From Escherichia phage heid, in the sequence record MN850577.1: a stretch of 64,000 nucleotides of DNA; one strand, 5' to 3'. A model generated the notes under the pieces. The model worked only from the letters and a program-made list of their open reading frames with translations. It searched no databases and was not told the origin of the DNA. Every line of letters begins with the position of its first letter. Position 1 is the first letter of the stretch. Position numbers and translations under genes: made by a program. This document shows positions 43,062 to 44,940 of this stretch, one piece after another.

Positions 43062-43119
43062 TTGACATAGAAAATTTGGTGAGTATACTGAGCAGCATAA
43101 ACCAACGGGTACTCACCAA
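43062..43119 (+). promoter_or_regulatory. Sigma70-like promoter TTGACA (43062-43067), 16 bp, TATACT (43084-43089), bracketed by a perfect 10-bp inverted repeat TTGGTGAGTA / TACTCACCAA (43076-43085 and 43110-43119)
   Basis: Hexamers and inverted repeat read directly. Confidence 0.55.
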
Positions 43120-43255
43120 CATCACTTAAGAGTCTTTGAAAAGGGTTTTTTAAGTGATGTGGGGCGAGGCTCGGTGAGGTGGGGTAAGGCATAGTGCGGT
43201 GCTGTTTGGTATGGGTAGTTAGTCTCATCTACATTAAAATGAGACTTACCTTTTT
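43120..43255 (+). repeat. G+T-rich structured repeat unit 1: palindromic box CATCACTTAA...TTAAGTGATG, GGT-periodic tract, hairpin AGTCTCAT-CTACATTAAA-ATGAGACT followed by T5
   Basis: Read directly; lies in the long leader of gene 43470-44057. Confidence 0.6.
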
Positions 43256-43393
43256 AAAAGGTCTTTAAGAGGGTTTTTTAATGAGGTAGGGTAAAGTAAT
43301 GCTTGGTCTGGTTTGGTAAGGCGCGGTCTGGTTTGGTAAGGTAAGGTTCGGTATGGTATGGGTGGATGGTAGTAGCCACGTTAAAAATCTACC
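43256..43393 (+). repeat. G+T-rich structured repeat unit 2: box AAAAGGTCTTTAAGAGGGTTTTTTAATGAGGTA, GGT-periodic tract, hairpin GGTAG-loop-CTACC
   Basis: Read directly. Confidence 0.6.
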
Positions 43394-43469
43394 AAGTTTC
43401 TAAAGAGTCTTCTGTTGAGGGTTCTTTACAAACAACTTAACAATCAACTAAAGTGTGGAGCTAAATGCT

Positions 43470-44057
43470 ATGAAACTGTTAAATATCAAAATCACTGGTA
43501 CTCGTCCTTTCTTGAGCCACGCTGATACGTTGTCAGACCCATTAAACCCTCTGACAAAATATCACAAGTCTCTGTCCAGTAAACGTAAAAAGACTGATGA
43601 AGACTATGCGCTCTTAGCAGAAAGCCAACTGGTAACCTCTTGTTACTACGATGAGCAGCTAGGTTTTGTTATGAACGGTGAGATGATTGAGGCTTGTATC
43701 AAGTCTGGTGCAAAACTCAACAAACTTGGTAAGGTAATTGACCGAGCCATTATGCTGACAGATGTAGTCTTCCCAATGACTATCAAGAACTGTCCAGCAA
43801 ACCCACAAGAACTTGCTAAGAATCCAGACTTTATCTATGCTAAGTCTGTTAAGATTGGTACAGCACGAGTTATGAGCTACCGTCCAATCTTCCGTGACTG
43901 GTCTGTAGAGTTTGGTTTGATGTTCGATGAAGAGCAAATCACCAAAGAGGAACTTCTGATGGTTCTTGAAAATGCTGGTAACCTTTGTGGTGTAGGTGAT
44001 TGGCGTCCACGCTTTGGTCGTTTTTCTGTAGAAGTTATTTCAGAAGGTAACGTTTAA
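43470..44057 (+). CDS. Hypothetical protein (about 195 aa) flanked by repeat arrays
   Basis: ORF; ATG at 43470 with SD GTGGAG. Confidence 0.5.
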
Positions 44058-44059
44058 TT

Positions 44060-44500
44060 ATGAATACAAAAGCATTAGCAGCAAAGTTTAGTTACGGTGA
44101 CACTGTATCACACTCTGAGATGGATACCTTCTTAGGTATTGTGAAGCCAACTTATCAAGGTGACATTGTTAAGTACGAAGATGAAATGAAGGCTTATGCG
44201 CTTACACGTCTAAACCGACTTGAGAAGTTTATTGAGAAGCTTCTTAAAGAAGAGAAGATTTATCTGGTTGCTTCAATGGGTGTTGGTTATCGTGTGGTTG
44301 AACCTAAGCATCAAGCAACTATTGCAAAACGTAAAATGTCTGGTAAGATTGGTCGAGCTTTAAAGCAAGCTACTCAAGCGATTGAGAATGTGAATACTAT
44401 GGCACTTAGTCATCAAGAACGTTCACGACTGATTGAACAGCAAAACCATTTAGCTGCTATGAAAGCTAACATTAATAAGCAACGTAGAAAACCTTTCTAA
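44060..44500 (+). CDS. Hypothetical protein with basic C-terminus (146 aa)
   Basis: ORF adjacent to 43470-44057. Confidence 0.5.
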   Translation: MNTKALAAKFSYGDTVSHSEMDTFLGIVKPTYQGDIVKYEDEMKAYALTRLNRLEKFIEKLLKEEKIYLVASMGVGYRVVEPKHQATIAKRKMSGKIGRALKQATQAIENVNTMALSHQERSRLIEQQNHLAAMKANINKQRRKPF

Positions 44501-44509
44501 GTTGACTAG

Positions 44510-44534
44510 GTAGCCTCTTCGGAGGCTCCTTTTT
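44510..44534 (+). terminator. Intrinsic terminator
   Basis: AGCCTC-TTCG-GAGGCT hairpin followed by T5. Confidence 0.6.
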
Positions 44535-44668
44535 AAAAGGTCTTTAAGAGGGTCTTTTAATGAGGTATTGTTCGGTGTTGTATGGTAGGGTCTGGTCCGG
44601 CAGGGTCTGGTTCGGTCCGGTAGGGTCTGGTATGGGTAGTTAATCGGAGCTACATAAAAATTCGATTA
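44530..44668 (+). repeat. G+T-rich structured repeat unit 3 (hairpin TAATCGGA-GCTACATAAAAA-TTCGATTA)
   Basis: Same architecture as units 1-2; hairpin stem changed on both arms while the loop is conserved. Confidence 0.6.
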
Positions 44669-44803
44669 CATCACTTAAGAGTCTTTTAAGAGGGTTTTTA
44701 AGTGAGGTGTGGCACGGTAATGCTAGGTAGGGTCAGGTCAGGTCAGGTGAGGTAAGGTGTGGGTAGTTAGTCTCAGCTACATTAAAATGAGACTTACCTT
44801 TTT
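44669..44803 (+). repeat. G+T-rich structured repeat unit 4 (GGTCAG x3 tract; hairpin AGTCTCA-GCTACATTAAA-ATGAGACT followed by T5)
   Basis: Read directly. Confidence 0.6.
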
Positions 44804-44920
44804 AAAAGGTCTTTAAGAGGGTCTTTTAATAAGGTATTGTATGGTGTAGTTTGGTTAGGTATGGTTGGGTGTGGTAAGGTAGGGTATGGAAGGATGGCAG
44901 TAGCCTTATAAAAAATCTGC
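44804..44920 (+). repeat. G+T-rich structured repeat unit 5 (hairpin GGCAG-loop-CTGCC)
   Basis: Read directly. Confidence 0.55.
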
Positions 44921-44940
44921 CAAATAAGCTATAAAATCTG

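Follow-up and report, generated by a model that had tools for sequence, protein, structure and literature searches.

What are the five G+T-rich repeat units that bracket a two-gene cassette in Escherichia phage heid (sequence record MN850577.1, of which a stretch of 64,000 nucleotides, here called the window, was analyzed)? Two of the units lie upstream of the cassette (43119-43394) and three downstream (44528-44922), enclosing open reading frames (ORFs) at 43470-44057 and 44060-44500, and all of these features are on the plus strand. An earlier, sequence-only reading of this DNA had correctly described the two-plus-three layout in a single orientation, with every feature lying where it had been placed, and had added that no element of such architecture was known, a statement that is now outdated. 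The element is already known: VIPR (Viral Interference Programmable Repeat) of phage SUSP1 was reported in April-June 2026 in preprints from the Doudna laboratory (bioRxiv 10.64898/2026.04.26.720920, 10.64898/2026.04.26.720927; hereafter the VIPR preprints), and the five units are guide RNA (vrRNA) genes. More precisely, the locus is, with a probability of roughly 0.95, a type II VIPR system of the SUSP1 clade residing in a Felix O1-like phage. In VIPR as published, a gene for the RAMP-fold protein Vipr and an accessory gene, vap, occur together in the phage, and the vrRNAs contain 9-16 YNNGG repeats followed by a 3′ pseudoknot tail (VIPR preprints). The vrRNAs of the window, with 11-15 repeats and a pseudoknot tail, fit this definition.

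The assignment is anchored by the enclosed genes. The product of 43470-44057 matches PDB entry 36pp, “SUSP1 Vipr protein”, over residues 1-195 with an E-value of 8.5e-129, and differs from SUSP1 Vipr at only 3 residues, while the product of 44060-44500, Vap1, differs at 1 residue from the product of the gene downstream of vipr in SUSP1. Thirteen of the 14 contact residues named by the structure paper are present (H17, K33, R39, E71, M72, K82, G87, K88, R138, C173, D177, W178 and R179), and all of these, G87 aside, serve to read GGY and to hold the DNA. A Pfam search gave no significant match for either enclosed protein, and their PHROG families (phrog_4652 and phrog_5926) are of unknown function only. 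The pairing of protein and array also extends well beyond this phage. When IMG/VR was scanned for the bare DNA pattern (GGTNN)x6, independently of any protein, heterogeneous GGT pentamer arrays were found in many unrelated viral contigs, and in at least 25 unrelated array-bearing contigs a Vipr homologue (24-38% identical) is encoded in the same fetched locus. Because the homologue is co-located in so many loci, array and Vipr form a conserved pair across very distant phages.

The repeat tracts of the five units are strictly periodic. Four of the five contain 9-11 copies of GGT per 60 nt, where the window as a whole averages 0.79, and no comparable plus-strand site is present elsewhere in the window. 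The period of GGT is exactly 5 nt rather than the 6-8 nt proposed earlier, such that each tract can be written as (GGY NN)n, where Y is C or T and n is 12, 15, 14, 12 and 11 in units 1-5, respectively. Among 36 units from 10 related loci, the length of the tract between fixed anchors keeps one residue modulo 5 (44-74 nt with one type of the flanking A/T-rich box described below and 47-72 nt with the other), which suggests that whole repeats are gained or lost. The pentamers of 64 distinct related arrays have the composition G 76%, G 99%, C/T 100%, N, N, and the two N positions can hardly be aligned between phages with 90-97% identity elsewhere, a hypervariability that could reflect re-targeting in an arms race. 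Length changes that come only in multiples of 5, and a copy number that varies among close relatives, would also be displayed by neutral pentanucleotide satellite DNA that is driven by slippage and has no function. However, such DNA would not be expected to hold GGY at these frequencies while NN drifts freely, to carry compensatory changes in its flanking tails, to be associated with Vipr genes across phyla of phages, or to match targets (see below), and this explanation is scarcely credible.

Each tract is followed by a segment that the sequence-only reading had described as a hairpin with a conserved loop. The covariation of its stem is borne out, but GCTACATTAAAA is not a loop: its CTAC portion pairs with the GTAG at the end of the repeat tract, while its A-rich remainder is the loop of a pseudoknot. 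In order, the tail comprises S1 (GTAG, GTGG or AAGG), 1 nt, the 5′ arm of S2, 1-3 nt, S1′ (CTAC, CCAC or CCTT), the A-rich L3 and the 3′ arm of S2, an arrangement that amounts to an H-type pseudoknot in which the first loop is 1 nt long, the third is rich in A and both stems covary. Across 20 distinct tails, all 80 cells of S1 are paired, in three covarying arm types; sliding the partner by 1-3 nt lowers this to 12-49 of the 80. S2 displays compensatory changes with G·U intermediates (TAATCGGA/TTCGATTA, TAATCGGA/TCCGATTG and TAATCGAA/TTCGATTA), and because of these intermediates the structure under selection must be that of the plus-strand RNA. Thus, the earlier argument from covariation to selection on structure holds at the RNA level, whereas the cruciform DNA site offered alongside it does not. 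The hairpin and T5 noted at 43219-43255 are likewise real, although they represent the 3′ pseudoknot tail of vrRNA1 rather than an attenuator. A covariance-model search of 42000-46000 against Rfam, as suggested earlier, returned sub-threshold chance matches only and no family.

The anatomy that emerges, in which promoter P1 stands upstream of vrRNA1, vrRNA2, vipr and vap1, is as follows.

43062..43089, plus strand: promoter P1, TTGACA-16-TATACT, with 11 of 12 consensus positions (a good promoter, as read earlier), kept in all related loci
43119..43152, plus strand: A/T-rich box of type A, 5′ of vrRNA1, ACATCACTTAAGAGTCTTTGAAAAGGGTTTTTTAAG
43153..43212, plus strand: vrRNA1 repeat region, 12 GGY-NN pentamers
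43213..43255, plus strand: vrRNA1 3′ tail pseudoknot, S1 GTAG/CTAC, S2 AGTCTCA/TGAGACT, then ACC and T5
43248..43284, plus strand: A/T-rich box of type B, 5′ of vrRNA2, ACCTTTTTAAAAGGTCTTTAAGAGGGTTTTTTAATGA
43285..43359, plus strand: vrRNA2 repeat region, 15 GGY-NN pentamers
43360..43394, plus strand: vrRNA2 3′ tail pseudoknot, S1 GTGG/CCAC, S2 TGGTAG/CTACCA
43470..44057, plus strand: vipr, encoding the 195-amino-acid minimal RAMP-fold protein (PDB 36pp match; phrog_4652)
44060..44500, plus strand: vap1, encoding the 146-amino-acid Vipr-accessory protein (phrog_5926)
44512..44535, plus strand: intrinsic terminator after vap1, AGCCTCTTCGGAGGCT followed by a T run
44528..44563, plus strand: A/T-rich box of type B, 5′ of vrRNA3
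44564..44633, plus strand: vrRNA3 repeat region, 14 GGY-NN pentamers
44634..44668, plus strand: vrRNA3 3′ tail pseudoknot, S1 GTAG/CTAC, S2 TAATCGGA/TTCGATTA with one G·U pair
44669..44700, plus strand: A/T-rich box of type A, 5′ of vrRNA4
44701..44760, plus strand: vrRNA4 repeat region, 12 GGY-NN pentamers
44761..44803, plus strand: vrRNA4 3′ tail pseudoknot, then ACC and T5
44796..44832, plus strand: A/T-rich box of type B, 5′ of vrRNA5
44833..44887, plus strand: vrRNA5 repeat region, 11 GGY-NN pentamers
44888..44922, plus strand: vrRNA5 3′ tail pseudoknot, S1 AAGG/CCTT, S2 TGGCAG/CTGCCA
44922..44969, plus strand: promoter P2 of the downstream operon, with hexamers called at 44941-44969

What the variable bases of these guides might recognize was approached through satellites found by a BLAST search of the locus against complete E. 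coli genomes. The tail of vrRNA2 has matches of ~90 bp in 152 complete E. coli genomes (the satellite copy is 82% identical), and these reside in an ~11-kb island that contains a large serine recombinase, baseplate, tape-measure and HNH endonuclease genes and ~2 kb of non-coding DNA, without vipr or vap. The baseplate and tape-measure genes of the island share up to 86% amino acid identity with window genes at 57.9-60.7 kb. Of 5426 complete E. coli genomes, 566 carry a member of this satellite family, and several insertion sites are used; an example, in E. coli 2013C-3492 between wrbA and ymdF, occupies 10346-21064 of locus L142 and 948.4-959.2 kb of NZ_CP027445, and others are L141 and L143-L151.

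The guides were recast as nNN patterns and scanned against 11 satellites (115 kb), with skips of 0, 1, 2 and 3 nt compared. With a skip of 1 nt, vrRNA4 matches 22 of 24 NN positions in a 107-amino-acid satellite gene (L142 16825-16860), vrRNA5 matches 20 of 22 in a satellite intergenic or promoter region (L141 18568-18600), and vrRNA3 matches 23 of 28 in the satellite tape-measure gene (L149 4589-4630). Three of the five window guides thus match satellites at 82-92% of NN positions, and they do so only under the 1-nt-skip rule: with skips of 0, 2 or 3 nt, the best matches of the same guides involve 15-19 positions, which is the background level. By chance, about 2e-6 to 8e-5 hits of this quality would be expected in the 229 kb searched. 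The same rule emerges from related guides, 35 of 64 of which reach an NN match of at least 80% with a 1-nt skip, against 2, 2 and 2 under the other rules, and a control set of 142 kb of flanking chromosome yields 1 of the 64 at this threshold with a 1-nt skip. Within the 64-kb window itself, no skip-1 match of at least 80% is found for the window guides, which gives no indication of self-targeting. As tested here by pattern matching, the guides of this phage appear to be directed against the ~11-kb satellite that resides in E. coli chromosomes; for the SUSP1 clade, the published tally is 18 of 20 assignable guides aimed at a satellite phage (VIPR preprints).

The satellites also carry guides of their own. 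A single vrRNA gene with its own sigma-70 promoter is present in 6 of the 11, and in most cases its tail is followed by a terminator-like hairpin. None of the satellite-borne vrRNAs significantly matches this phage, and one of them matches another satellite at 21 of 24 positions, findings on which the published account agrees (VIPR preprints). The vipr-less satellites appear to act as Vipr decoys.

The target matches, taken together with the genetic context, bear on two further explanations. The units might constitute a structured RNA sponge for a host RNA-binding protein, or leaders and attenuators acting in cis, their NN bases being devoid of information. Repeated short RNA motifs do recall CsrB-type sponges and TRAP-binding leaders, and the upstream array is situated in the 5′ leader of vipr, with vrRNA1 ending in a hairpin and T5. 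However, the NN bases are not neutral, given that more than half of the related guides match one satellite family under a single skip rule, and it is this sequence-specific matching that displaces the sponge suggested by the sequence-only reading. Moreover, the partner protein is encoded by the phage and co-inherited with the arrays across distant phages, and the downstream array, situated behind a terminator, has no gene after it that could be under its control in cis. Sponges and leaders are accordingly regarded as very improbable.

Alternatively, the arrays could be iterons that belong to a replication origin or packaging site and are bound as double-stranded or cruciform DNA. The VIPR locus is flanked by the DNA ligase gene (41771-42904) and a wV8 gp93 homologue (45014-45397), within a plus-strand block of early and replication genes, with DNA polymerase upstream in relatives, and its strong G-over-C skew downstream of a strong promoter would favor R-loops. 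Against iterons, the genome ends of the related phage UAB_Phi87 map elsewhere (PMC4837284), which also led to a packaging terminus being set aside, and about half of Felix O1-like phages are without most of the arrays and the cassette. In addition, G·U intermediates in the pseudoknot make sense only for a plus-strand RNA, and a particular gapped code aligns the variable bases with satellite DNA. Iterons, although among the earlier suggestions, consequently retain next to no probability.

Several narrower candidates were also considered, all of which the match to Vipr made unnecessary. Primase-site clusters were among them, T7-type GGTC sites being absent from many tracts, and so were KOPS sites and BREX GGTAAG sites, the counts of which fit chance given the pentamer structure. 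The others were an R-loop origin, Chi-like or RecA-preferred GT tracts, antitermination sites of the boxA/nut type, RfaH ops, a strand bias of the Rho-proof or Rho-loading kind, sponges for the CCA ends of tRNAs or the anti-Shine-Dalgarno sequence and, closest in spirit, a TRAP-like ring-binding site. The genome papers on Felix O1, wV8 and UAB_Phi87 do not discuss the repeats, one of which is labeled “DR_4” in the wV8 record, and nothing relevant on Felixounavirus transcriptomes or small RNAs was found in the literature.

How a VIPR system would operate in this phage can be proposed from its near-identity to that of SUSP1, for which ~100-nt vrRNAs are documented by small RNA sequencing (sRNA-seq), together with pull-down with Vipr, GFP repression and phage assays, and for which protection is enhanced by co-expression of vap1 (VIPR preprints). 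Unit calling applied to SUSP1 yields one upstream and three downstream vrRNAs, in agreement with the published sRNA-seq, as compared with two and three in the window. As shown for SUSP1, Vipr protomers would polymerize along the vrRNA, one per pentamer, each burying a GGY motif and displaying the two variable bases. The NN dinucleotides would then pair with two of every three bases of the double-stranded DNA target, the third being skipped, so that an R-loop triplex forms, and binding of the Vipr-vrRNA complex would silence transcription of the rival satellite phage. Expression of the vrRNAs, their binding by Vipr and the resulting silencing are all presumed here on the strength of that near-identity. 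Of the roles envisaged earlier, structured non-coding RNAs and binding sites for the two enclosed proteins therefore pointed in the right direction: the units are guide RNA genes, and their transcripts are probably bound by the product of 43470-44057.

A number of observations weigh against the assignment to VIPR or its presumed targets. Two guides are without a clear target in the 11 satellites: the best skip-1 match of vrRNA1, in a satellite integrase gene (L149 2477-2512), is borderline at 19 of 24 NN positions (79%), and vrRNA2 has no convincing target, with 21 of 30 positions (70%) at best. None of the window guides has a perfect match. The vrRNA4 target skips position 2 of the codons of an annotated gene, whereas the skipped base is usually the wobble position (VIPR preprints). 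Residue 175 is V in the window protein and in translated SUSP1 Vipr, while the structure paper names T175. Finally, the present analysis is confined to sequence, and expression, binding and silencing rest on the SUSP1 preprints, which are not yet peer reviewed.

The distribution of the locus among relatives is uneven. Escherichia phage Andreotti shares 97% identity with the surrounding region, for which 230 records of Felix O1-like phages gave matches; by this similarity the window is placed in a Felix O1-like phage of the genus Felixounavirus, closest to Andreotti. The 195-amino-acid ORF is found in no more than about half of the Felix O1-like records, and the two-gene cassette is for this reason accessory. 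In vipr-less phages, one or two orphan vrRNA genes are located between P1 and P2 (L004 2500-2620, L005 2500-2630, L013, L014, L017 and L026), and a single hybrid unit occupies this position in EC6 and Si3. The single-unit orphans combine a type-A box with the final tail type, which is what a deletion running from one flanking array into the other would leave. GGY integrity is 67.5% in orphans compared with 76.8% in intact loci (Fisher p = 0.036), and the single-unit cases are lowest, at 50%. The simplest reading is that orphan guides represent decay after recent deletion. One orphan vrRNA still matches a satellite at 88% of NN positions. With the strong early promoter P1 in front of them, orphan vrRNAs might function in trans, whether by using Vipr supplied by a co-infecting phage or by sequestering it as decoys.

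Directly 5′ of every phage-borne vrRNA is the A/T-rich box, composed of two tandem TAAGAG(G)GTYTTTT motifs and occurring as types A and B, of which there is no discussion in the VIPR preprints (bioRxiv 10.64898/2026.04.26.720920, 10.64898/2026.04.26.720927). The box has no sigma-70 promoter score. An 11-bp inverted repeat in type A shows no compensatory change between phages, and its interpretation as an RNA helix is accordingly unsupported. The downstream array lies behind the strong terminator that follows vap1, yet the corresponding array is expressed in SUSP1 (VIPR preprints), and on this basis the box might be an unconventional promoter or a processing signal. That it is a dedicated element of vrRNA biogenesis, and that orphan vrRNAs act in trans, both being matters outside the published accounts, is advanced as a tentative proposal that is on balance unlikely.

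Other features of the neighborhood may be recorded. At P2, a 19-nt inverted repeat (44922-44940 and 44950-44968, 89% complementary) has the P2 -35 element TTGACA within its loop and is followed by a T run; conceivably, it terminates transcription of the vrRNA array or serves as an operator at P2. A 48-amino-acid hydrophobic ORF (42908-43054; phrog_22006) resides between the ligase gene and P1; the gap that it occupies is also found in some VIPR-bearing relatives (wV8 and SUSP1) and is missing from others (ESCO45 and HK3), as well as from EC6 and Si3. At the start of the window, positions 1-1250 comprise ~1.2 kb almost without ORFs and with dense short direct repeats on the minus strand (CTTGTTAG, TTGTTAAGA, CTTAAAAG and TATAAAGAGCT), which could be a terminal-repeat and packaging region or a regulatory region.

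VIPR is a recently described mode of RNA-guided DNA recognition in which the guide is read discontinuously, two bases in every five, and Vipr has been proposed to predate the RAMP proteins of CRISPR. The window adds no new principle, although the locus could be picked out of raw DNA by a sequence-only reading, and two published claims, on the 1-nt-skip code and on the satellite targets, are reproduced computationally and independently, with guides and satellites collected for this analysis. The system is also widespread, given its presence in about half of Felix O1-like phage records and that of its target satellite in roughly a tenth of complete E. coli genomes. What remains of interest is the guide repertoire, the A/T-rich box and the orphan guides. 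Separately, some of the unrelated IMG/VR contigs contain longer or more numerous GGY-NN arrays, with up to 47 pentamers per tract or seven tracts within 2.5 kb (L037 531-766; L057 4869-7398; L063 10110-14027; L099 5322-6667; L034, L050 and L067). In some of these contigs the arrays adjoin tRNA-like sequence, and most, L063 excepted, encode a distant Vipr homologue; they are probably other VIPR types.

Comparison with known systems can be made at several levels. The type II VIPR locus of SUSP1 has the same gene order, vrRNAs on both sides, GGY-NN repeats and pseudoknot tail, the same flanking P1 and P2, the same genomic position from ligase to the gp93 homologue, and the same targeted satellite family. 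The two differ in that SUSP1 is a Suspvirus and the window phage a Felixounavirus, in the number of vrRNAs (one plus three in SUSP1, two plus three here), and in their NN guides, so that the predicted target sites differ as well.

TRAP, which recognizes (G/U)AG triplets in the Bacillus trp leader, offers a more remote parallel, as an oligomer that reads a triplet every ~5 nt in single-stranded RNA and leaves the spacers free. TRAP is nevertheless a closed ring without homology to Vipr, its spacers hold no information, and it attenuates in cis without guidance to DNA.

The Class 1 CRISPR-Cas systems, in which Cas7-family RAMP filaments assemble on CRISPR RNA, resemble VIPR in that RAMP-fold subunits polymerize along a guide RNA, a thumb periodically breaks the duplex between guide and target, and a conserved structured handle caps a variable guide. 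The locus does not belong to CRISPR-Cas: its repeats are 5-nt GGY-NN units rather than repeat-spacer units, and neither of its genes has a significant Pfam match. VIPR is without an array of identical repeats and unique spacers and without the adaptation genes cas1 and cas2. Its period is 5 nt on RNA and 3 nt on DNA, as opposed to 6 and 6 in Class 1 systems, only two of every five guide bases are read, and it is a phage-encoded system that silences its target rather than cleaving it.

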